Origin: a virus
Lineage: Duplodnaviria; Heunggongvirae; Uroviricota; Caudoviricetes
DNA: 8,682 bases
Virus record (IMG/VR): IMGVR_UViG_2734482774_000009
Strand: one strand, 5' to 3'
Shown here: piece by piece, positions 1-8,682 of the stretch
Layout: each line of letters starts with the position of its first letter
Position numbering within the stretch: the first letter of the stretch is position 1
Translations under genes and position numbers: made by a program
The notes under the pieces: generated by a model
Database searches by the model: none
The model's input: only the letters and a program-made list of their open reading frames with translations
What the model was told of the DNA's origin: nothing

Positions 1-153
1 ATGGCAAAGCCGATCATCACGCTCAATGGCCTAAAAATCGTCATTATGTTGGGAATGCTGGTCATTATTCTCTGCGGTATCCGTTTTGCCGCCGAGATCA
101 TCGTGCCGTTTATTCTCGCATTATTTATTGCTGTTATATATAACTTATTTTGA
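1..153 (+). pseudogene. tqsA: 5' fragment (50 codons) of an inner-membrane transporter gene, TqsA (AI-2 exporter)-like N-terminus; frame diverges after about codon 46 and stops at 151-153
   Basis: Hand translation: [45 protein letters not shown] then IYNLF-stop. Strongly hydrophobic, TM-helix-like. Identity to TqsA/YdgG is recalled, not searched. Sequence becomes AT-rich and non-coding immediately after, consistent with an insertion junction near 138-150. Confidence 0.45.
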
Positions 154-635
154 ATAACATACTGATTTAATTATATTTTCAATTAAGCCCGAAGTGCAAA
201 AAAACTCAAAATAACTACACCAGTGACTACACCGTTCGGCGCACTGTATGAAACAACGTGGAACAAATAGGCACAAGAAATATAAAGGCGGGTAATTTTA
301 AGGGGGCGTTGCTGTCGATATGGGGATTCCCATATCGGGAACCCTACCGGAATTTTTTTCCGGTTAACAGTTAATCAGGCTGGTGGGCTTTACCTGTTCG
401 GTAGGTGTTATGATTATCGTAATACCTTTCCCTCAATGGGGTAAAAGCATCAACCGTAACGAAAGTCGTTATGGTTGCCGCCGATACCCCAAATTTGGGT
501 ATCACGAGTAAGCCCCAAAATCTGGGTGTTGCTCTTACTACCCAAACTACGGGTAGTTTCCGTAATTTCATGGTCGAGTTGCAGATCTGCAACTCCCCCA
601 TCAACCACAGGCGAATTTCCGCCTTCGGTCATTCC

Positions 636-718
636 TTAATCATCTGCGTAATCATAATGATTATTCAGCCAGCGCAATTTTGCGCTTTGCTTTAAGTTCA
701 ACCAGTTACCGCCAGCTT
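636..718. repeat. Direct repeat copy 1 (about 85 bp) containing palindrome AGCGCAA-TT-TTGCGCT
   Basis: ccttaatcatctgcgtaatcataatgattattcagccagcgcaattttgcgctttgcttta... recurs at 757-848 with about 85% identity and a 10-bp indel. Confidence 0.6.
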
Positions 719-756
719 CCCCCAATGGGGGATTGTGGAATAATCAACGGTTTAGG

Positions 757-848
757 CCTTAATCATCTGCGTAAACATAAGTAATCATAATGATCATTCA
801 GCCAGCGCAATTTTGAGCTTTGCTTTAATCTCAGTGAGTTACCGCCGC
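757..848. repeat. Direct repeat copy 2 (about 92 bp), abutting the 3' end of the 89-aa minus-strand gene
   Basis: ccttaatcatctgcgtaaacataagtaatcataatgatcattcagccagcgcaattttgagctttgctttaatc... aligns to 636-718. Confidence 0.6.
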
Positions 849-1108
849 AACCGTTCCGGCTTCTTCCAGTGGTACGTGATTTTCTCCTTCTCCCGATACA
901 TCTCCACGCGGCGACGGTATGCCAGCAACTCAAGGACTCTGGTTCGTATGTTGCGCTTAAGCTCAATACCATCACGGCGCATCACCTCAGCAACAACACG
1001 CGCATAATTTTCAGCGGTCACGCTGTCCGGTTGCGTGCCCTGTTCGTCATGCTGCTGGCTGATTCCGGTAACGCGGCGGATTAATCGCAGTAGTTCGGCT
1101 TCTGTCAT
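839..1108 (-). CDS. Hypothetical 89-aa protein with basic C-terminus, located just outside cos copy A
   Basis: ATG at 1108 preceded by GGGGG Shine-Dalgarno on the minus strand; TAA stop at 839-841. No family recognised from sequence. Confidence 0.5.
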   Translation of the reverse strand: MTEAELLRLIRRVTGISQQHDEQGTQPDSVTAENYARVVAEVMRRDGIELKRNIRTRVLELLAYRRRVEMYREKEKITYHWKKPERLRR

Positions 1109-1141
1109 TGTGCCCCCATCGTTCTGATAGCCTGGTGTCGT

Positions 1142-1345
1142 CGGGTCCTTCCTGGAATTATGGCCCGTTACGGGGCGGCGACCTCGCGGTTTTTATCTGT
1201 TTATGAAAATTTTCCGGCAAAAGTCAGATCCGTTCTTCTTCTCTGTAACAGACTGTTTAACAATGAAAATATTAAAAAAAGAAAGGATCTGACACGAGGC
1301 ATTTTAGCCAGAAAATGCCATTATCAGATCCTTTCTCATTTTTGT
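1142..1345 (+). other. cos site copy A: cosQ-like segment, cosN (GGGCGGCGACCT at about 1173-1184), then a lambda-like cosB running rightward
   Basis: ttacg-gggcggcgacct-cgcgg matches the lambda cohesive-end region as recalled. Downstream tatgaaaattttccgg (1202-1217) is identical to the lambda 16-mer; ccgttcttcttc (1230-1241), aaagaaagga (1278-1287) and cctttctcatttttg (1330-1344) resemble lambda R3/R2/R1 Nu1-binding elements. 1142-1188 is one arm of a perfect 47-bp inverted repeat with 2036-2082. Confidence 0.8.
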
Positions 1346-1363
1346 TCAATAATTGCGCTTCTG

Positions 1364-1906
1364 TTACTTGCCTTTCTTCTGTAGCAACTTTTCCGGTACG
1401 TTTCCGGTTGTTTCTTTCAAGTAATCAGCCAGTATCTGTGGGAGGTTGTCGGCAACTCTGGCACTGGCATTACAGGCTTTAACCACTTCCCTTTTAAGCC
1501 TGTCCAGCATGGCGGGGGTAATCTGTGGGAAGCTCCTTTGCATAGTAAGCGGGAGGCTGTCCATGATTGATGAAATCTGACTCGCCAGCTTTGAAAGCGC
1601 GTACAGGCAAAACTCAGTATCAATCACGTCACCGCGATCGCGCTCGTTTTTAAGTTCCTGCGCCTCCGCCTGTGCTGTCAGTAATCTGATCCTGACTCGT
1701 AAGAGTTCATCATCATCAATATCGCCTTTGTCGTTTGTAAGCTGGCTAATTGCATTGTTAACCCTATTGTCTATCACGCTGGCAACATCATAAAACGCCT
1801 CACGGCCTTTACGTTCAACGGGAGTCACTCCCCACTTGTCGAACGCTGTCGCACTTACACGGCAGCTTTTCGCCATGTTTTTTTTGTTCATCAGATGAGA
1901 TTTCAT
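1364..1906 (-). CDS. Terminase small subunit, lambda Nu1-like (180 aa)
   Basis: C-terminal two-thirds aligns closely by eye to lambda Nu1 (LTAQAEAQELKNERDRGDVIDTEFCLYALSKLASQISSIMDSLPLTMQRSFP versus lambda LTRAQADAQELKNARDSAEVVETAFCTFVLSRIAGEIASILDGLPLSVQRRFP); N-terminal HTH-like region is more diverged. Start ambiguous among ATGs at 1906, 1891 and 1876 (no strong Shine-Dalgarno for any); the MNKK start at 1891 aligns best with Nu1 MEVNKK. Confidence 0.85.
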   Translation of the reverse strand: MKSHLMNKKNMAKSCRVSATAFDKWGVTPVERKGREAFYDVASVIDNRVNNAISQLTNDKGDIDDDELLRVRIRLLTAQAEAQELKNERDRGDVIDTEFCLYALSKLASQISSIMDSLPLTMQRSFPQITPAMLDRLKREVVKACNASARVADNLPQILADYLKETTGNVPEKLLQKKGK

Positions 1907-2082
1907 TAATACACCAACTTAATTACTGCTTCAGGTTGGTGTATTGTTTGCATCTTTCCCTTTTCATTCATAAAGATAGAGCAAACAACAAAACCACCAC
2001 CACCCCCCTGAAAAGGCTCATAAATAGCGAAAACGCGCGAGGTCGCCGCCCCGTAACGGGCCATAATTCCAGGAAGGACCCG
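1907..2082 (-). other. cos site copy B (inverted): cosQ-like plus cosN (2040-2051 on plus = GGGCGGCGACCT on minus), with a divergent cosB between cosN and the terS start
   Basis: 2036-2082 is the exact reverse complement of 1142-1188. On the minus strand cosN is followed by cgcgcgttttcgctatttatga (lambda: cgcgggttttcgctatttatga), then diverges. An 11-bp inverted repeat AATACACCAAC / GTTGGTGTATT (1909-1919 / 1935-1945) sits immediately upstream of terS. Confidence 0.8.
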
Positions 2083-2083
2083 T

Positions 2084-2106
2084 AAAAAAGCCGGATTTCT
2101 CCGGCC
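2084..2106 (-). terminator. Rho-independent terminator closing the capsid operon
   Basis: Minus strand reads GCCGGAGAAATCCGGC followed by a T-run (plus-strand aaaaaagccggatttctccggcc). A near-identical hairpin recurs at 4355-4376. Confidence 0.65.
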
Positions 2107-2111
2107 TTGTC

Positions 2112-2525
2112 TCAGATGGTTTTCAGTATGCGATCGATGTCGCCGTCATCGCCCTGGTTTCTGCCATCGTATGCCATGCCAGCTGATACGGCTTGCGGGC
2201 TGTGCATGTCCATAAAGTTTTCAAAGGCTGCGGTAAGTTCCGGCGCAACCTTCGGACGTTCCTGCTCTATGGTCATGCTAAGGATGCTTTTAGCCGTACC
2301 AACATCGATACAAGGCACGTTTGCCATTGCACGCAACAGCGGCTGATAGTCTTTATGCTCATGAAGCGCCATAATCGCATCAGCGCGCGGCTTGTCCTGC
2401 TCTTCCAGTTTGTTTAGTTGATATACGGCCTCATAGGTTGATAAACCTCTGTCAGCCATTGCCCGCGCTTCGGCTTTAAATTTACTCGCCAGCGGTAGCG
2501 TCATGATGCTTTCATTCGTTGCCAT
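2112..2525 (-). CDS. Hypothetical 137-aa protein, last gene of the capsid operon
   Basis: ATG at 2525 with GGGGGA Shine-Dalgarno; 12 bp downstream of the gpD-like stop. Acidic C-terminus (DDGDIDRILKTI). No family recognised. Confidence 0.6.
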   Translation of the reverse strand: MATNESIMTLPLASKFKAEARAMADRGLSTYEAVYQLNKLEEQDKPRADAIMALHEHKDYQPLLRAMANVPCIDVGTAKSILSMTIEQERPKVAPELTAAFENFMDMHSPQAVSAGMAYDGRNQGDDGDIDRILKTI

Positions 2526-2537
2526 CGTTCCCCCTGC

Positions 2538-2873
2538 TTATCGGGCCAGCGGCTGAACGGATACGCCGGAACCCGCAAAGGCGGCGCATTTTTTCGCATC
2601 GGTGTCGACGCTCTCAGGCCAGTTAACGGCGGCAATATTGAATATCCCCGTCTTGTAACACTGTGCTGATTTCTGCTTTGACGTGTCCACAGGGTACGAG
2701 GTCAGATAAACAGCCTTGCCAGATTCCTTACCATCCCACGGCTTAAACTCGCCATTGTCCGCCAGCATCAGCGGGGTAAATTCCTGAATAACGCCAGCAT
2801 CAGCGGCAAAATGTACCAGCGTCGTGGCGACCTGCTGACTGCCTGCAAATAACTCAATGTATGGAGTGTCCAT
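2538..2873 (-). CDS. Head decoration protein, lambda gpD-like (111 aa)
   Basis: Motifs shared with lambda gpD as recalled: TPLML(A/D), WDG, YK(T/S)G(I/T)F, WPE, KK(C/R)(A/T)AFAG; same length class (lambda D is 110 aa). GGGGGGA Shine-Dalgarno before ATG 2873. Confidence 0.85.
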   Translation of the reverse strand: MDTPYIELFAGSQQVATTLVHFAADAGVIQEFTPLMLADNGEFKPWDGKESGKAVYLTSYPVDTSKQKSAQCYKTGIFNIAAVNWPESVDTDAKKCAAFAGSGVSVQPLAR

Positions 2874-2885
2874 AGAATCCCCCCG

Positions 2886-3941
2886 TTAACCAATTTTGAC
2901 GGTAACAAATTTGCGAATATCTGCCGGTACCGGCTGCGGTGCACTGTGTGTCTGCACGTACTCAATCGCCGGATCGCCGTCCTCAATCCAGTTTTTCGGG
3001 TAAAACATGTTTTGTGTTGCGCCCGTTCTTACCGCTTCCTGATCCATTATCGCACCATAGGCCACCAGCCCTTTATTGTTGGTGTTGCCCAGAACCAGCA
3101 AATCAGGCTCAAGGAAATATTTTTCTGTGCCGTCGCTGTCAGCGTATTTGCCGGAATAGACGATAAGGGCAATATCGCCCAGATAGCCTTTAAAGCTCAC
3201 CACTTCGCCCAGGTTTTTACAGGCCAGTTCTGCGGCGGATTCTGAACCACGGGAAAGATCGTACAGCTCACGGAATTTTTTAAAGCTGCGTAACGTGCGC
3301 CATACCTCAGCGCCCATAATCATGACGTTTGCGGGGCAACCAGCCTGATCAGCATAAAGCTCGATGTCATAGATTGGGTCGTGCATCTCTTTATCCTGCT
3401 CGGACCATTTTTTACCCTTGCCCTGCTCTATGATGCAGTTTTCCGGTATTTTCCAGTCTATTTCATAGCGTTCTATGCCTTCGCCCTCAATAATGTTTTT
3501 TCCGGTCGTTATCGCATTCACCGCCAGCCATTCCACGCGCGCTTTAATGGCGTTTACCTGGCGGCGCATGTTGCCAGTAATCAGGCGCATACGTCGGTAG
3601 GTAGGGTCGTTAAGCTGTGCCGGATCTTCTCCAGCCATGCGCATGATGGTTTTTGTTGGATCGATTTCGTGCTTTGGCTTCATGTAGCCAGGTTTAATCG
3701 TGCTGGTTTCGTATCCTTTATCGCGCTGTACCTGGCTGCCAACCATAGGCGAACAAAACGCCGACATGGTGACTTCTTCAATGTCCAGGGTATCCAGCAT
3801 GATGTTTTGGGTGCTGAATGTCGCCACGTTCGGGAAAAACAGCGTGGTAAACAGCGGACTGAATTTAAATTCCGCAATATCCCCGCGATTCAGGTACGCA
3901 AAAAGCTGGTTAGTGTTAAGTGCCGTTGCTTTGCCTGCCAT
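2886..3941 (-). CDS. Major capsid protein, lambda gpE family (351 aa)
   Basis: Blocks matching lambda gpE as recalled: FKF(S/D)PLF, PGY(M/V)KPKHE(I/V), DP(T/A)YRR(M/R)R(L/I)I, VLGNT, YPKNW; similar length (lambda E is 341 aa). TAATG overlap with the upstream 68-aa gene; GGGGGTGA Shine-Dalgarno. Confidence 0.9.
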   Translation of the reverse strand: MAGKATALNTNQLFAYLNRGDIAEFKFSPLFTTLFFPNVATFSTQNIMLDTLDIEEVTMSAFCSPMVGSQVQRDKGYETSTIKPGYMKPKHEIDPTKTIMRMAGEDPAQLNDPTYRRMRLITGNMRRQVNAIKARVEWLAVNAITTGKNIIEGEGIERYEIDWKIPENCIIEQGKGKKWSEQDKEMHDPIYDIELYADQAGCPANVMIMGAEVWRTLRSFKKFRELYDLSRGSESAAELACKNLGEVVSFKGYLGDIALIVYSGKYADSDGTEKYFLEPDLLVLGNTNNKGLVAYGAIMDQEAVRTGATQNMFYPKNWIEDGDPAIEYVQTHSAPQPVPADIRKFVTVKIG

Positions 3942-4147
3942 TATTCACCCCCATAATTTTTATGCATCCCAAGCGCCGCAAGTAAATAAGAGCGCACAAG
4001 TGAACCTATCGACGGCTCCGGCGTCATCAGCGGATCCAGTCCAGCCGCTACGCCAGCCTCATAGTTTTTTTTGTGGCGCTGCTTGAGCACCTCCACGATT
4101 TCGGGGCTTATGTACACCGAAACACCGCCTTTTTTCTCTTCTGCCAT
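3941..4147 (-). CDS. Hypothetical 68-aa protein, first gene of the capsid operon
   Basis: ATG at 4147 with AGAGGAA Shine-Dalgarno; stop overlaps the capsid gene start (translational coupling). No family recognised. Confidence 0.55.
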   Translation of the reverse strand: MAEEKKGGVSVYISPEIVEVLKQRHKKNYEAGVAAGLDPLMTPEPSIGSLVRSYLLAALGMHKNYGGE

Positions 4148-4180
4148 AGTCAGAAATTCCTCTTTGACTTAAAAAATCAC

Positions 4181-4231
4181 AACTGGATGTTCATCCAGTT
4201 ATGATTATAATCATGATTGCATTTTGCGCAA
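4181..4231 (-). promoter_or_regulatory. Putative capsid-operon promoter with operator palindromes
   Basis: Perfect 20-bp palindrome AACTGGATG-TT-CATCCAGTT (4181-4200; CTG-N10-CAG spacing). Adjacent palindrome ATGATT-AT-AATCAT (4201-4214) contains TATAAT; candidate -35 TTGCGC on the minus strand at 4231-4226 with 16-bp spacer. Confidence 0.4.
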
Positions 4232-4305
4232 TAAAATTGAGTTGTGTTGCAAATTATGAAATGATTTACAGCAACAGTAGTCACCATGCTGTTAACCTCG
4301 TAAGC

Positions 4306-4348
4306 AAAAGCCCGATAAGCTTCCTCCTGTACTTATCGGGCTTTTTTT
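4306..4348. terminator. Hairpin terminator, likely bidirectional
   Basis: Stem GCCCGATAAG / CTTATCGGGC (4310-4319 / 4332-4341), T7 run after it on the plus strand and an A-run before it (a T-run on the minus strand). Confidence 0.6.
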
Positions 4349-4354
4349 GGGTAC

Positions 4355-4376
4355 AAAAAGCCGGATTTTCTCCGGC
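4355..4376 (-). terminator. Rho-independent terminator after the SSB gene
   Basis: Minus strand reads GCCGGAGAAAATCCGGC then TTTTT; 9 bp downstream of the SSB stop. Near copy of the 2084-2106 hairpin. Confidence 0.65.
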
Positions 4377-4384
4377 CTGTGCGT

Positions 4385-4795
4385 TCAGAACGGAATATCA
4401 TCACCGTAGGGGTCATCGTCTCCCGCTGGTGGCTGATTACCCTGTGCGCCTGTGGTTTTGCGTCTGTTCCCGCCAGGACGTGCCGCACGGGCACTGATTA
4501 CGCTGTCTGCAATAACCTGATAACCCTGCCGCGTTTCCCCGTTCTGTCCGGTCCACTGGCTTATCTGCATCACGCCAGATATGCTGGCAACGTCGCCTTT
4601 TTGATGTTTAGCCAGGAAGTCGGCCTGCTTACCAAATGCCATCACCGATAGCCATAACGTAGCCGTTCCGTCATCTGCCTGGCTGCACGGAAGGGGGACC
4701 GCCATACGCGCCAGCGTCATCGGTGTGCCCTTGCTGGTCTGTTTTACCTGCGGGTCGTCCACCAGCCGCCCGTAAGCGGCTATCTGTGCTGTCAT
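4385..4795 (-). CDS. ssb: Single-stranded DNA-binding protein (short SSB, 136 aa)
   Basis: C-terminal acidic tail DDDPYGDDIPF (E. coli SSB ends DDDIPF); OB-fold-like N-terminal region; Gly/Pro-rich linker. GGAGAGGTGG Shine-Dalgarno; ATGA overlap with the upstream gene. Confidence 0.85.
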   Translation of the reverse strand: MTAQIAAYGRLVDDPQVKQTSKGTPMTLARMAVPLPCSQADDGTATLWLSVMAFGKQADFLAKHQKGDVASISGVMQISQWTGQNGETRQGYQVIADSVISARAARPGGNRRKTTGAQGNQPPAGDDDPYGDDIPF

Positions 4796-5106
4796 GATTC
4801 CACCTCTCCGGTTTTAACGTTGATGGTTGTTACCTGTTCCGCTTCGGCAATCTCCCGTTCTGTCAGCGTGGCAAAGTTTGCCGCCGCTGTGGTCATGAAT
4901 GCGCTTATCAGTTCGGGATGTTCCTTCGCGTATCCTTCCCGCGTGTGGCGGTCTATCGTTCTGATTGCCACCTTTAAGGTGTGCTCAGTCATGTCTAACG
5001 CTTTATATTTTGGCTCTGTTCTGTCTCTGCGAATTTTGGTCATTTGTCGCCCCTGATTCATGTTTTCGGCTGGCATGTTTGTTAAGTGATTTTGATGTAT
5101 GCGCAT
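4792..5106 (-). CDS. Hypothetical 104-aa protein co-transcribed with ssb
   Basis: ATG at 5106 with strong GAGGGGGTGA Shine-Dalgarno; an alternative internal start at 5043 also has AGGGG. Stop overlaps the ssb start. No family recognised. Confidence 0.55.
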   Translation of the reverse strand: MRIHQNHLTNMPAENMNQGRQMTKIRRDRTEPKYKALDMTEHTLKVAIRTIDRHTREGYAKEHPELISAFMTTAAANFATLTEREIAEAEQVTTINVKTGEVES

Positions 5107-5153
5107 TTATTTTCACCCCCTCGTTTAAAAAGTTTTTAGTTGTGCCTCCCCCC

Positions 5154-5382
5154 CTCTACCCATCTACCCGAATGCTCATCATGTCAGTAATGGCGCGGCT
5201 TTCAGCGGGTAGATAGCTTTTTGAGCTCCTCTACCTGCCGTCTACCCTGCTACCTGAAACTGATAAAATCAGGTAGAAGAGGTAGAGAGCTTTTATTAGC
5301 CTTCTACCTGGCCCTCTACCCACTTATCATGTTGAATAATATGTATTTATTTCATTCAGGTAGATGGGGTAGAGGGCTTTTA
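5154..5382. repeat. Putative replication origin: iteron array plus AT-rich segment
   Basis: At least 11 copies of the hexamer core TCTACC / GGTAGA in both orientations within about 225 bp, where about 4 would be expected by chance in the whole window. Three extended copies GGTAGA-nnGCTTTT at about 5208, 5281 and 5368. AT-rich stretch at 5326-5357. Lies immediately downstream of the primase stop (5390). Confidence 0.65.
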
Positions 5383-5389
5383 CAAAAAA

Positions 5390-7138
5390 TTATAAAAACG
5401 CGTCGCAATCGTCTGTTGTAATTGCGTTGGTCTGCGTTACTCCCTTAACTTTTCGCGTAATATATTCATGCCCGTAAACTTTCGCCGCTGGCTTCATGGC
5501 CTTGCTGAACTCAGCCACGTTTAGCGGTTTGCTCCTGCCTGCGTATGCCATAAACGCCAGATAGACGCGGTAAAGGCTGTTCCTGGTCGTGTACTTCACT
5601 GAATCACCACCGCCACCCATCATCAGGCCGCGCGCTTCCTCCAGAAAATTCAGGAACTGGCAAAACTCAATAACCGGATCCGTCTGTTGCTTTATTGCCA
5701 GTGCTTCATCACCGTCACGCTGTTCCAGTAGTAAAGCCCTCGCCTTTTCAGGGTCGGTAAAGTTCGCCAGCAAGCGGCGGATAATAACGGGGATTTCAGC
5801 CGCAATTTTTTCCGGTAGTTCCCTGTCTTTTTCGGCCTCACTAACAATATTGTCGAAACGGAAAATCACGCGACGACGTGCCACACCTCCGGCCCGTTCG
5901 GTGAATATCATCGGGTTATTATTGGTCGCCAGCACCACCGCCCTGATTACCGCCGTGAAACGCTTTTCATATTTCGGGTTTATTTCCACGGGGTCGCCGC
6001 CCGTGATTTTCTTGATGCCCGTTCCTTCGCCTGTATATTTCGGCTGGTCTGCCAGGACGATAAGACGACTCCCGACAACCTGCGCACGTCCACCAGCATC
6101 ATCAAGCGATGTCATTTCAGCGCTTACCGTGTTCTGTTTCCCTGCCAGAAGGCTGGCTATGTGTGTGAATGTACTTTTACCGCTCCCGCCGTCTCCGGTG
6201 GCCTCAATAAACATCTGCCAGTCGTACCGGTTCGCCATAATCATGTACAGCGCGGCACATATACGCATCATCTTGCGCGGGTCTTTTCCGGCTGCGTGAT
6301 CAAGCCATTTATGAAAGTTTGGCGCGTTGTCGCGGATATTCTCCCCTGGTGCTGGTGGCGTGTATTCAATGCCGTTGTGCGTGGTGATCCAGTTCTCCGG
6401 CGTGTGCGGGGAAAATTCCCCTGTTTTCAGGTCAAGCGCACCATTGGCGAACGGCAACAAATCGCCGGACGGCTCGCCCATTGGTTCGGCAATAACTTTT
6501 AATGCTTCCACGGCGTTATTGATTACGCGCTTGCTGAAAGTGGCCCTGTGCTCTGAATAGATCGCCACCATTTCGCGGCTAAGTTCCATTGTGCTGACCG
6601 GACACCATACCCCGCCGCGCCATACGTGAACGATTTCACTTTCCGGATGCACACAAACGCCATCAAATCGACCAGCAAGCATCTGTGCGCGCTCACTGTC
6701 TGCCATTTGTGCCAGTTGCGTATTTTTCTGCTCCGGCATGGTAAGCCCTGCGGCAATATTTTCACGCTCAGCATTCAGATAGCGCCGCCAGTTTTCACAC
6801 TTCTGGACGTGCATTCCTTCGTGGTAAAAATTTGCGTCCTGAATATCTGCCGCCGCCAGCTTCTGACCAATCTTTTTGGTCTCCACTAAATCCAGTTCTC
6901 CGGCCTGGTACAGCCTTACGCGCTTTTTCCCATCCGGAACAATTTTCAGCGCATCAAGTTCGGCAAGCTGCTTTGGCCCAAGCCACACAGGCGGCACATT
7001 ATCGCCGGATGCGGGGCCATCCTGCTCCTGCCATTGTTTCGCGTGCGACCAGGCATCACTACCCGCAAAGATAATTACCTCTGTGTCTTTGTGTTTTATT
7101 CCGCGTGGCTGTTTTTTTACGTTCGGTGCCAGTTTCAT
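5390..7138 (-). CDS. Replication initiator: P4-type primase/helicase (582 aa)
   Basis: Walker A ATGDGGSGKSTF and Walker-B-like LIVLADQ in the C-terminal half, with an N-terminal primase-like region, as in P4 alpha / PICI Pri-Rep-type proteins (recalled). AGGGG Shine-Dalgarno; ATGA overlap with the upstream 99-aa gene. Confidence 0.85.
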   Translation of the reverse strand: MKLAPNVKKQPRGIKHKDTEVIIFAGSDAWSHAKQWQEQDGPASGDNVPPVWLGPKQLAELDALKIVPDGKKRVRLYQAGELDLVETKKIGQKLAAADIQDANFYHEGMHVQKCENWRRYLNAERENIAAGLTMPEQKNTQLAQMADSERAQMLAGRFDGVCVHPESEIVHVWRGGVWCPVSTMELSREMVAIYSEHRATFSKRVINNAVEALKVIAEPMGEPSGDLLPFANGALDLKTGEFSPHTPENWITTHNGIEYTPPAPGENIRDNAPNFHKWLDHAAGKDPRKMMRICAALYMIMANRYDWQMFIEATGDGGSGKSTFTHIASLLAGKQNTVSAEMTSLDDAGGRAQVVGSRLIVLADQPKYTGEGTGIKKITGGDPVEINPKYEKRFTAVIRAVVLATNNNPMIFTERAGGVARRRVIFRFDNIVSEAEKDRELPEKIAAEIPVIIRRLLANFTDPEKARALLLEQRDGDEALAIKQQTDPVIEFCQFLNFLEEARGLMMGGGGDSVKYTTRNSLYRVYLAFMAYAGRSKPLNVAEFSKAMKPAAKVYGHEYITRKVKGVTQTNAITTDDCDAFL

Positions 7139-7434
7139 TTTTTACCCCTGAATCCGTTAATCATGGTTTTCAGCTTCTGGATGTTTGCCCGTGCCCTGGC
7201 GTTGCTGGTGGGCACGTTATGCGGCGCGGTCTGTACCAGAGAAAAATCACGCCGGAACTGATAAACAGGCATCACGCAATCATATTCGTAACCTTCACGG
7301 CGGTAAGTTACGCACCGTCCCGCCACGCCCTTAATCATTACCGTGCCGCCGTACTGGTCGCGGTAAATATCACCGCGCGTAAATTTTGGGTGAGTGTTGC
7401 CACTGGCAGTTAAGCCAGAATATTTAAGTTTCAT
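7135..7434 (-). CDS. Hypothetical 99-aa protein, translationally coupled to the primase
   Basis: ATG 7434 with GGAGA upstream; stop overlaps the primase ATG. Confidence 0.55.
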   Translation of the reverse strand: MKLKYSGLTASGNTHPKFTRGDIYRDQYGGTVMIKGVAGRCVTYRREGYEYDCVMPVYQFRRDFSLVQTAPHNVPTSNARARANIQKLKTMINGFRGKK

Positions 7435-7439
7435 TATTT

Positions 7440-7667
7440 TTATTCTCCGGTGTGGGGCGCGTTATTATTTTCGTGAATTGCCATCGCCTTATCCAGTTCA
7501 TCAATTACAGGCGATAGTAATGTCTGAACGGCGGCAAGCATTAATGACGAAGATTCTTCTCCAGCTTCCGTTGCTTCAATTAATTTAATTAACAACGCAT
7601 TCATTTCGCGCGCTTTAATTAATGCGTTTTCAGAGTGGATTAATACTTCAAAAGGGATTTTATTCAT
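7440..7667 (-). CDS. Hypothetical 75-aa protein (predicted helical, acidic)
   Basis: Start chosen at internal ATG 7667 (AGAGGG Shine-Dalgarno, ATGAATAA overlap with upstream stop) rather than the track's 7712 start. Confidence 0.5.
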   Translation of the reverse strand: MNKIPFEVLIHSENALIKAREMNALLIKLIEATEAGEESSSLMLAAVQTLLSPVIDELDKAMAIHENNNAPHTGE

Positions 7668-7896
7668 GGCGTACCCTCTGAATATCTGCGGTAAGAATTT
7701 TACCTGCCTCATTCAGCGCCATATCAGCACTAAGTTGCATAACCGCCAGCGAATGAGGGACGAAAGCCCCGGCATATTCTGTTTCACTGGTGGCGTGCTT
7801 ATGCGCCCTGTCAGCAATAACAGAAATATCAATCAGCGCGTGCATCAGCGTAGTGAGCGCGGCGGCGGCTGCGTCCGGTGTGGTTTTATTGCACAT
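7660..7896 (-). CDS. Hypothetical 78-aa protein
   Basis: Start chosen at ATG 7896 with strong GGAGGGG Shine-Dalgarno; the longer track ORF (to 7953) lacks a Shine-Dalgarno and would overlap the upstream gene by 68 nt. Confidence 0.5.
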   Translation of the reverse strand: MCNKTTPDAAAAALTTLMHALIDISVIADRAHKHATSETEYAGAFVPHSLAVMQLSADMALNEAGKILTADIQRVRHE

Positions 7897-8119
7897 GGTG
7901 TACCCCTCCGCATTTTTTTTCGTTAGAAATAAGCGTTCTTCTTTCCTGTTCATCGCTCAGGAATACGCAGACCTCACCGCTAAGGCGTTTAAGTAAGCCG
8001 ATGATTGCCCCTGATTCGCTGTCGGTCATCATGCCAGGGTAATCCTCTGCCAGTGCGCAAATAACTTCGATTTGGTGGGCGCGTTCTGCTGCCTGCTGTA
8101 GTGTGATTTCCTGACTCAT
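7886..8119 (-). CDS. Hypothetical 77-aa protein
   Basis: Track ORF begins with a TTG at 8176; the internal ATG at 8119 has a GGGGG Shine-Dalgarno and an ATGA overlap with the upstream 64-aa gene stop. Confidence 0.5.
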   Translation of the reverse strand: MSQEITLQQAAERAHQIEVICALAEDYPGMMTDSESGAIIGLLKRLSGEVCVFLSDEQERRTLISNEKKCGGVHHVQ

Positions 8120-8310
8120 AAGCCTACCCCCTGACGAATACGGGCGGCGAATACAGCCACACAACCGGACGGGCAACGGCTACGCGCTTCGCGTTCCGTC
8201 CAGGCGGTGACGTGGATGATTTGAGATTCTCCGGCACTCAGGGCCAGAAAACGCCACACAAAGGCAGTTTGTGTGTGTACAAGGTGTGGTATATGATTTA
8301 CGGCAACCAT
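8116..8310 (-). CDS. Hypothetical 64-aa protein, first gene of the replication operon
   Basis: ATG 8310 with GAGGAG Shine-Dalgarno at good spacing; no family recognised (not AlpA-like, no Ogr/Delta zinc-finger pattern). Confidence 0.5.
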   Translation of the reverse strand: MVAVNHIPHLVHTQTAFVWRFLALSAGESQIIHVTAWTEREARSRCPSGCVAVFAARIRQGVGL

Positions 8311-8377
8311 AACGGCTCCTCGTTTACGTTGTTGGTTAGAAGCCCCGTTACTGCTCCTACAGTGCGGGGTTTCGTCG

Positions 8378-8473
8378 TTTCAACACCTTGCCTAAATAAG
8401 GTGTTGAACACCAATTTAAATCGAGGTGTTAAACACGTCAAGTGTTGAACACTTATTTTTTTTCCTGCATACT
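8378..8473. promoter_or_regulatory. Divergent control region with three 11-bp palindromic operators GTGTT(G/A)AACAC and a half-site
   Basis: Sites at 8401-8411, 8426-8436, 8442-8452, plus half-site caacacc at about 8381-8387. Candidate plus-strand promoter: -35 TTGAAC (8445-8450, inside operator 3), 17-bp spacer, -10 CATACT (8468-8473). Confidence 0.55.
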
Positions 8474-8502
8474 GCATTTGTTTTTTATGAGGGGTGCTCA
8501 AC

Positions 8503-8682
8503 ATGGCGACAAAAGCAGTAAACGCAAAATCACAAACAGTTGCGGCAAGGGTTCCACATGAAGTTATGAACAATGTTGAGGCGGTAAAAATGCCCGGCGA
8601 AAGTACAGGGCAGTTTGTTACAGCTGCATTAAAGCGGGAAGTTGAATACCGCCAGCGTCGCAAGGCCAAAGAATCAGAATAA
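8503..8682 (+). CDS. Small DNA-binding regulator, ribbon-helix-helix (Arc/CopG-like) candidate, 59 aa
   Basis: ATG 8503 with GAGGGG Shine-Dalgarno 8 nt upstream (track ORF starts at a GTG at 8494). Pattern TVAARVPHEV (beta-strand) - MNNVEAV (helix) - G - STGQFVTAALKREV (helix) fits an RHH fold; basic C-terminal tail. Only gene transcribed away from the minus-strand operons. Confidence 0.5.
   Translation: MATKAVNAKSQTVAARVPHEVMNNVEAVKMPGESTGQFVTAALKREVEYRQRRKAKESE

Follow-up and report, generated by a model that had tools for sequence, protein, structure and literature searches.

Viral DNA inserted in tqsA of Escherichia coli reads as a phage-inducible chromosomal island with a small terminase between two inverted cos sites

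What is the DNA that interrupts the transporter gene tqsA of Escherichia coli in the IMG/VR virus record IMGVR_UViG_2734482774_000009, and how might it reach other cells? We analyzed a stretch of 8,682 nucleotides from this record, which we will call the window. We are confident that the window represents a Gram-negative phage-inducible chromosomal island (PICI) of the EcCI family, of which it covers the left ~8.5 kb out of ~11 kb. The island is inserted in tqsA, and its packaging would be driven by a helper and use the island's own small terminase (TerS). An earlier note, made from the sequence without database searches, had proposed a satellite or PICI, not a prophage fragment. This holds up: the element is 11.0 kb long, has a duplicated 9-bp core, lacks a full virion set, and is collinear with EcCICFT073 and EcCI042. 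The element is already known. The family was published in 2018, and tqsA, with the core ATAACAGCA, is among the PICI attachment sites in Table S1 of that study (Fillol-Salom et al. 2018, ISME J; PMC6092414).

We first describe the insertion. Window bases 1-137 are codons 1-46 of E. coli tqsA, and island DNA begins at base 138. (The open reading frame (ORF) at 1-153 on the plus strand reads through these 46 codons and continues for four foreign codons up to a stop, so that the protein sequence first changes at codon 47.) This agrees with the earlier note, which had the element start at 138 and placed its left boundary inside tqsA at about codon 46. The note had also suggested looking for strains with an uninterrupted tqsA. 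Strain E2865 provided such an empty site, and with it both junctions and the att core could be defined: in a three-way alignment, exactly TGCTGTTAT is common to the tqsA of E2865, the left junction of the window, and the right junction in NZ_AP027156. This core is the reverse complement of the published one. It lies in codons 43-46, is present once in the empty gene, and is duplicated at both junctions.

We compared the window to 5,426 complete E. coli genomes with megablast. In 57 of them, at least 80% of the window is found in one place, and the best is ~98.5% identical. The copy in NZ_AP027156 is 98.5% identical over window positions 1-7667 and has 11,010 bp between its TGCTGTTAT cores. Its left flank has mdtJ and ydgV, the usual neighbours of tqsA. 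Rightward, it continues with two small genes, a 62-amino-acid helix-turn-helix regulator (AlpA-type), a tyrosine integrase, the 3' part of tqsA, pntB, and pntA. So the integrase does lie beyond position 8682, as had been predicted. An integrase and an AlpA-type activator at one end are also found in all of the sister islands. In its size (PICIs are ~10-20 kb), its duplicated att core, and its PICI-specific site, the complete element in NZ_AP027156 is what is expected of a PICI.

The complete 11-kb element has no portal, large terminase (TerL), protease, tail, or lysis genes. Because its set of virion and lysis genes is incomplete, we conclude that the island depends on a helper. Also, the window is collinear, gene for gene, with EcCICFT073 and EcCI042 (both from RefSeq), and the architecture recurs at four att sites with all ORFs intact. 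Helper-induced mobilisation was shown experimentally for EcCICFT073 (PMC6092414).

Overall, the island is a mosaic sister of EcCI042, EcCIK1516 (the tqsA site), EcCICFT073 (replication and capsid genes), and EcCIATCC25922 (terS). EcCI042 (11 kb) and EcCIK1516 (11.4 kb) are both in tqsA (PMC6092414, Table S1) and are like the window in insertion site, 9-bp core, size class (11-11.4 kb), and gene order. EcCI042 differs in that rppA takes the place of terS, a RepA-type helicase replaces the P4-type primase, and perC follows ssb. EcCIK1516, which was compared by its Table S1 entry only, may be closer to the window. EcCICFT073 shares with the window the order int, alpA, divergent ylcI, icd-like gene, DUF4222 gene, pri, ori, ssb, 68-amino-acid gene, capsid, decoration, 137-amino-acid gene, cos, packaging gene, inverted cos, and ~90-amino-acid gene, as well as two lambda-type cosN sites. 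It differs in its location (between roxA, also known as ycfD, and phoQ), in having perC and another cosB, and in encoding RppA (144 amino acids), which needs the helper's TerS. EcCIATCC25922 (at tRNA-Pro/yejM) has the same terS allele (99.1% nucleotide identity), primase family, and capsid module as the window, but another integrase, att site, and early region.

The genes in the window come from a six-frame ORF list and from scans with Pfam, PHROG, and NCBIfam. With the non-coding sites, they are:

1-137, plus strand: 5' fragment of tqsA, whose frame continues past the junction to a stop at 153; in RefSeq, "pheromone autoinducer 2 transporter" (partial)
129-137, plus strand: attL core, from the alignment of the empty site, attL, and attR
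138-838, no strand: att-proximal arm without a convincing gene (ORF list) or an Rfam match
839-1108, minus strand: 89-amino-acid conserved PICI protein (PHROG, phrog_1561); its gene comes last in EcCICFT073 and EcCI042, too
1138-1345, plus strand: distal cos, which corresponds to cos2 of EcCICFT073; inverted relative to the operon, with R boxes that match the cos of a lambdoid prophage and phage
1364-1906, minus strand: terS, full-length small terminase of the Nu1 family, 180 amino acids (Pfam Phage_Nu1, E 2e-23)
1907-2086, minus strand: proximal cos, which corresponds to cos1 of EcCICFT073; co-oriented with terS, with an island-specific cosB
2112-2525, minus strand: 137-amino-acid protein, similar to the C-terminal part of lambdoid gpC-type prohead proteases (phrog_53, positions 495-567 of 583, E 5e-9)
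2538-2873, minus strand: head decoration protein of the lambda gpD family (Pfam HDPD, E 2.5e-17; 43% identical to the gpD homolog of a CFT073 prophage)
2886-3941, minus strand: major capsid protein of the lambda gpE family (Pfam Phage_cap_E, E 1e-50; 44% identical to the capsid protein of the CFT073 prophage)
3941-4147, minus strand: 68-amino-acid conserved protein (phrog_3255), whose stop overlaps the start of the capsid gene
4385-4795, minus strand: single-stranded DNA-binding protein, SSB (Pfam SSB, E 3.5e-15)
4792-5106, minus strand: small conserved protein (PHROG, phrog_1231) downstream of the origin; RefSeq uses an internal start (83 amino acids)
5150-5380, no strand: replication origin, with 11 GGTAGA iterons in both orientations and an A+T-rich stretch at 5340-5400
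5390-7138, minus strand: Pri-Rep, primase/helicase of the P4 family (NCBIfam TIGR01613; Pfam domains D5_N, DUF5906, and Pox_D5)
7135-7434, minus strand: DUF4222 protein (Pfam), kept upstream of pri in EcCI islands
7440-8310, minus strand: early small ORFs, ending with a homolog of the Icd-like cell-division inhibitor at 8116-8310 (ORF list, PHROG, and NCBIfam scans)
8494-8682, plus strand: YlcI/YnfO-family gene (NCBIfam NF041551, E 2.4e-16)

The gene in the packaging slot differs from that of EcCICFT073 and EcCI042. Among the phage TerS proteins in the collection that we searched, the island's TerS is most similar to gp1 of N15 (46% identity). It is 33% identical to TerS from the lambdoid prophage of CFT073 and, over its full length, 35% identical to lambda Nu1. 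In its C-terminal half, it shares 50% identity with Nu1 from phage PhiR12_1, and in Nu1, it is the C-terminal half that binds the large terminase (PMC6739421). We infer that the island provides a complete TerS that would recruit the helper's TerL directly. Some newly described PICIs carry a homolog of terS (PMC6092414), and the same allele is present in 768 of the 5,426 complete E. coli genomes, including O157:H7 strains and the published island of ATCC 25922. (A scan of one genome per species with exact peptides from TerS found no relative, but exact patterns and a single genome per species say little.)

Turning to the cos sites, we found two exact copies of the lambda cosN, GGGCGGCGACCT. They flank terS in inverted orientation, at 1173-1184 (plus strand) and 2040-2051 (minus strand). 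Both lie within a 76-nucleotide inverted repeat (1142-1217 and 2007-2082; 88% complementary). The same inverted arrangement is found in EcCICFT073, EcCI042, and the NZ_AP027156 island. The sites in EcCICFT073 were named cos1 (upstream of rppA) and cos2 in Supplementary Figure S5 of PMC6092414. In word searches of the 2018 and 2019 PICI papers and of the Murialdo-Feiss review, "inverted" was absent, and the sole match to "opposite" or "orientation" was not about cos. The earlier note had the packaging module end at a cos site. There is indeed an exact lambda cosN, but there are two inverted sites, and an 89-amino-acid gene and ~700 bp come before the junction.

The two sites differ in their cosB. 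The distal cos has the full lambda layout: a cosQ-like sequence (1138-1152), cosN, R3 (1221-1236), an inverted R2 (1280-1295), and R1 (1322-1337). Identical R boxes (core CAGATCC; window 1221-1337) are present in the cos of two others, a lambdoid prophage from APEC E12049 and phage SerU-LTIIb (loci compared with the window: L010 3940-4175 and L009 830-1065). In the APEC E12049 prophage, these boxes are directly upstream of Nu1-A-W-portal. Similarly, cos2 of EcCICFT073 shares 96.8% identity over 158 nucleotides with the cos that phages PhiR12_1 to PhiR12_5 have directly upstream of Nu1. We ruled out lambda or a Stx1 phage as the match for the distal cos, as their R boxes have CGTTTCC instead of CAGATCC. 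The R boxes of PhiR5_1 and of CFT073 phi4 differ from those of the distal cos too.

The proximal cos combines an exact lambda cosQ (2072-2086) and cosN with a cosB in which a GGTGGTGG run lies ~50 bp away from cosN and ACACCAAC/GTTGGTGT form an inverted pair at 1911-1942. These features suggest that the proximal cos is specific to the island, while the distal cos may be an entry point that mimics a phage. Lambda, N15, 21, PhiR12, and the APEC E12049 prophage are like the window in having identical cosN and cosQ, the R3-R2-R1 layout of cosB, and a Nu1-family TerS. Unlike these phages, the island has no TerL, has two inverted cos sites with differing cosB, and has a TerS that is at most 46% identical to any phage TerS in the collection that we searched. 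As a separate observation, window 1990-2002 is GGTGGTGGTGG, and cos1 of EcCICFT073 has its reverse complement, CACCACCACCAC (L004 11107-11124). The Murialdo-Feiss review describes an R3 site in PICIs ~48-65 bp from cosN, and GGTGGTGGTGG falls at that position in the window.

Comparison with EcCI042 shows how sharply the similarity changes at the cos sites. Going outward from the proximal cosN toward the capsid genes, we find ~99% identity between the window and EcCI042; on the other side, they are ~90% identical; and between the cosN sites, they are unrelated. Taken over the scaffold-like gene and both cos arms, the nucleotide identity to EcCI042 is ~99%. Because unrelated DNA lies between flanks that are ~90-99% identical, the segment comprising a cosB, a gene, and another cosB behaves as an exchangeable cassette. 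It also occurs in the other orientation. A synthetic query for the inverted junction matched over at least 80% of its length in 5 complete genomes. One of these is strain JNE181771, which has a second PICI, at the yejO/narP site; there, everything between the cos arms is turned around with respect to the capsid and primase genes. (This cassette is in NZ_AP027156 2544803-2563227, L011, where 9143-10083 was compared with window 1142-2082.)

Taking these observations together, we offer a tentative reading, which we consider possible but still doubtful. The inverted cos sites of EcCI-type islands would bound a mobile cassette for packaging specificity, in which terS or rpp lies between two cosB sequences. 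The proximal cos would be specific to the island. The distal cos would copy the complete cos of one class of lambdoid phages and so offer a second way into virions of that class, one that does not depend on redirection. The cassette would be exchanged between islands and would flip by recombination or by cos cutting at the inverted arms. The terS form would be ancestral, independent of the helper's TerS, and the source of Rpp. In the PICI literature that we searched by words, we found neither a swappable or invertible cos cassette, nor a phage-like distal cos, nor an Nu3-like 137-amino-acid protein (discussed below).

The island also has its own replication module. Of the 8682 bases, only the segment 5155-5373 contains GGTAGA, with 11 copies counted over both strands; about 0.1 copies would be expected in a segment of this length. 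This matches the iteron origin of the earlier note. The origin sits in the 280-bp gap between the primase-helicase gene and the gene at 4792-5106. The origin of PICIs is directly downstream of pri (PMC10111431), so the position of the iterons agrees with that of the experimentally defined PICI origin.

The capsid-type genes are harder to interpret. EcCICFT073 also has homologs of the capsid and head decoration proteins, along with two lambda-type cosN (PMC6092414), and a major capsid gene is present in 21 of 29 reference Gram-negative PICIs (PMC10111431). The 137-amino-acid protein has no match in Pfam or NCBIfam, and RefSeq labels it as hypothetical or as a "head-tail connector." It is 37% identical (E 3e-10) to residues 416-493 of a 501-amino-acid S49 peptidase from the CFT073 prophage. 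(This lambdoid prophage, at icd, was used for our protein comparisons, and we take it to be the helper "phage 4.") Lambda also produces the C-terminal part of gpC as a protein of its own, the Nu3 scaffold. By analogy with lambda, the similarity suggests that the 137-amino-acid protein resembles Nu3.

Together with what is known of EcCICFT073, these features lead us to propose the following life cycle. The tyrosine integrase, encoded just past the window, has placed the island at TGCTGTTAT in tqsA and thereby split the gene. As in EcCICFT073, a lambdoid cos phage would act as the helper and trigger AlpA-dependent excision, and Pri-Rep would fire the origin to yield concatemers. The helper's large terminase would then cut the island's cosN, and the DNA would leave in virions built by the helper. 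With this allele, the island's TerS would bind the island-specific cosB beside its gene and would recruit the helper's TerL via its Nu1-like C-terminal half. This route would replace the heterodimer of Rpp and helper TerS that operates in EcCICFT073.

Could the element be something other than a PICI? The capsid, decoration, scaffold-like, and terS genes and the cos are all of lambda-type families, as they would be in a decayed lambdoid prophage, but several lines of evidence make such a remnant very improbable. The element is a discrete 11.0-kb unit with an intact att duplication and its own integrase, and its architecture is repeated at four att sites with intact ORFs. It would replicate by a P4-type primase and iterons, not by lambda O/P. 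The island's proteins reach only 31-46% identity in comparisons with phages and prophages, and EcCICFT073, which is alike in architecture, has been mobilised experimentally. The earlier note had named two findings that would speak against a satellite, and neither was borne out: what occupies the first 153 bp is a truncated tqsA, not an intact small gene, and the region is not in a full prophage. The same head genes, with TerS, could instead hint at a cf-PICI, which makes its own heads and steals only tails. But cf-PICIs encode every protein for capsid formation and packaging (10.1101/2022.09.08.507074). The complete 11-kb element has no TerL, portal, protease, or head-tail connectors; because portal, protease, and TerL are missing, we set this class aside as just as improbable as the remnant. 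Satellites like P4 have a P2-type cos and the capsid-size and late-control genes sid, psu, and delta. The P4-family primase (TIGR01613), the Icd-like gene, the tyrosine integrase, and the size of ~11 kb fit such a satellite, but the cos is lambda-type, the late genes are of the gpE, gpD, and Nu1 types, and Psu, Delta, and Sid did not turn up in our general scans. Also, Gram-negative PICIs were explicitly set apart from P4 (PMC6092414). Of the three classes, this seems to us the least probable.

Within the PICI interpretation, a different question is whether the Nu1-like protein acts as an Rpp. In EcCICFT073 and EcCI042, RppA (144 amino acids) forms a heterodimer with the helper's TerS, which is thereby redirected to the island's cos (PMC6739421). 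If the Nu1-like protein did likewise, it would pair with the helper's TerS, block packaging of the phage, and redirect packaging to the island's cos, and the helper's TerS would be needed. The protein does sit exactly in the rpp slot, between both cos sites, and Rpp proteins, whose winged-helix DNA-binding domain resembles that of Nu1, have been proposed to descend from TerS (PMC6739421). But Rpp proteins in cos PICIs of that type are 144-153 amino acids long and have no TerL-binding tail (Fillol-Salom 2019), whereas the slot here holds a Nu1-family TerS of 180 amino acids that keeps the TerL-binding C-terminal half. We detected no similarity between the island's TerS and RppA (E 1.3), and a sequence search of the PDB with the island's TerS (RppC is deposited there) gave only noise. 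We therefore think that an Rpp-like role is unlikely, and we favor a PICI that brings its own complete TerS.

Several points weigh against our interpretation of the island or against parts of it. The integrase and alpA genes are outside of the window and were seen only in near-identical relatives. The right end of the window's own copy was not seen: 7668-8125 is unaligned to relatives, and the last ~550 bp are ~77% identical. Excision, replication, transfer, and the kind of helper are extrapolated to this island from EcCICFT073. Direct recruitment of TerL by TerS is a prediction from protein similarity, and either cos, proximal or distal, could serve the island's TerS. As for the capsid, decoration, and scaffold-like genes, deletion of the capsid or the decoration gene of EcCICFT073 did not relieve its interference with lambda (PMC6092414), and EcCICFT073 was reported to be packaged in full-size heads with lambda (PMC6092414; PMC6893505).

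Beyond the packaging genes, the gene set is compact and runs almost entirely in one direction: from the icd-like gene through the 89-amino-acid gene, all of the genes are on the minus strand, and only ylcI/ynfO is divergent. The scans recovered the primase/helicase, SSB, small ORFs, and capsid module at or near the places where the earlier note had put them. That note had also listed a divergent regulator. The divergent gene is the YlcI/YnfO-family gene at 8494-8682, whose position and strand are constant across all sister islands; a role as a regulator is conjectural.

The early region is a mosaic. Positions 7668-8125 do not align to the 98.5% identical sister, 8126-8682 are ~77% identical to it, and better matches are found in other islands. 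Between the 68-amino-acid gene and ssb (4148-4384), there is no perC-family gene, unlike in EcCICFT073 and EcCI042, where perC follows ssb. This gap has only two hairpin-like inverted repeats, at 4306-4345 and 4355-4378, and the latter copies a hairpin at 2084-2107. For the 89-amino-acid protein, a sequence search of the PDB gave only noise.

The arm between att and the 89-amino-acid gene contains ACTACACC repeats (213-233), which recur beside the integrase gene at attR and may serve as arm-type sites for the integrase. A non-coding stretch at 300-400, including a palindrome-like GGGGATTCCCATATCG, is kept in EcCICFT073 (L004 12430-12520) despite the differing att sites. There is also a direct duplication of ~90 bp (634-713 and 757-846; 89-96% identical) that overlaps the 3' end of the 89-amino-acid gene and the DNA downstream of it. 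An Rfam scan of the whole window (E ≤ 0.1) gave no match, so the conserved arm near att is not a known RNA.

What does this locus mean for the family? The finding itself is of little consequence: it adds one further copy to a satellite family that was published in 2018, and near-identical copies are present in many RefSeq genomes. For annotation, a split tqsA is to be read as a PICI insertion, and labels such as "terminase small subunit," "major capsid protein," or "head-tail connector" do not indicate a prophage here. If our reading of the 137-amino-acid protein is true, then a scaffold homolog may have been overlooked in these islands. And the observations on the cos sites and terS bear on an acknowledged question about PICIs, namely, why they have two cos sites and where Rpp came from.

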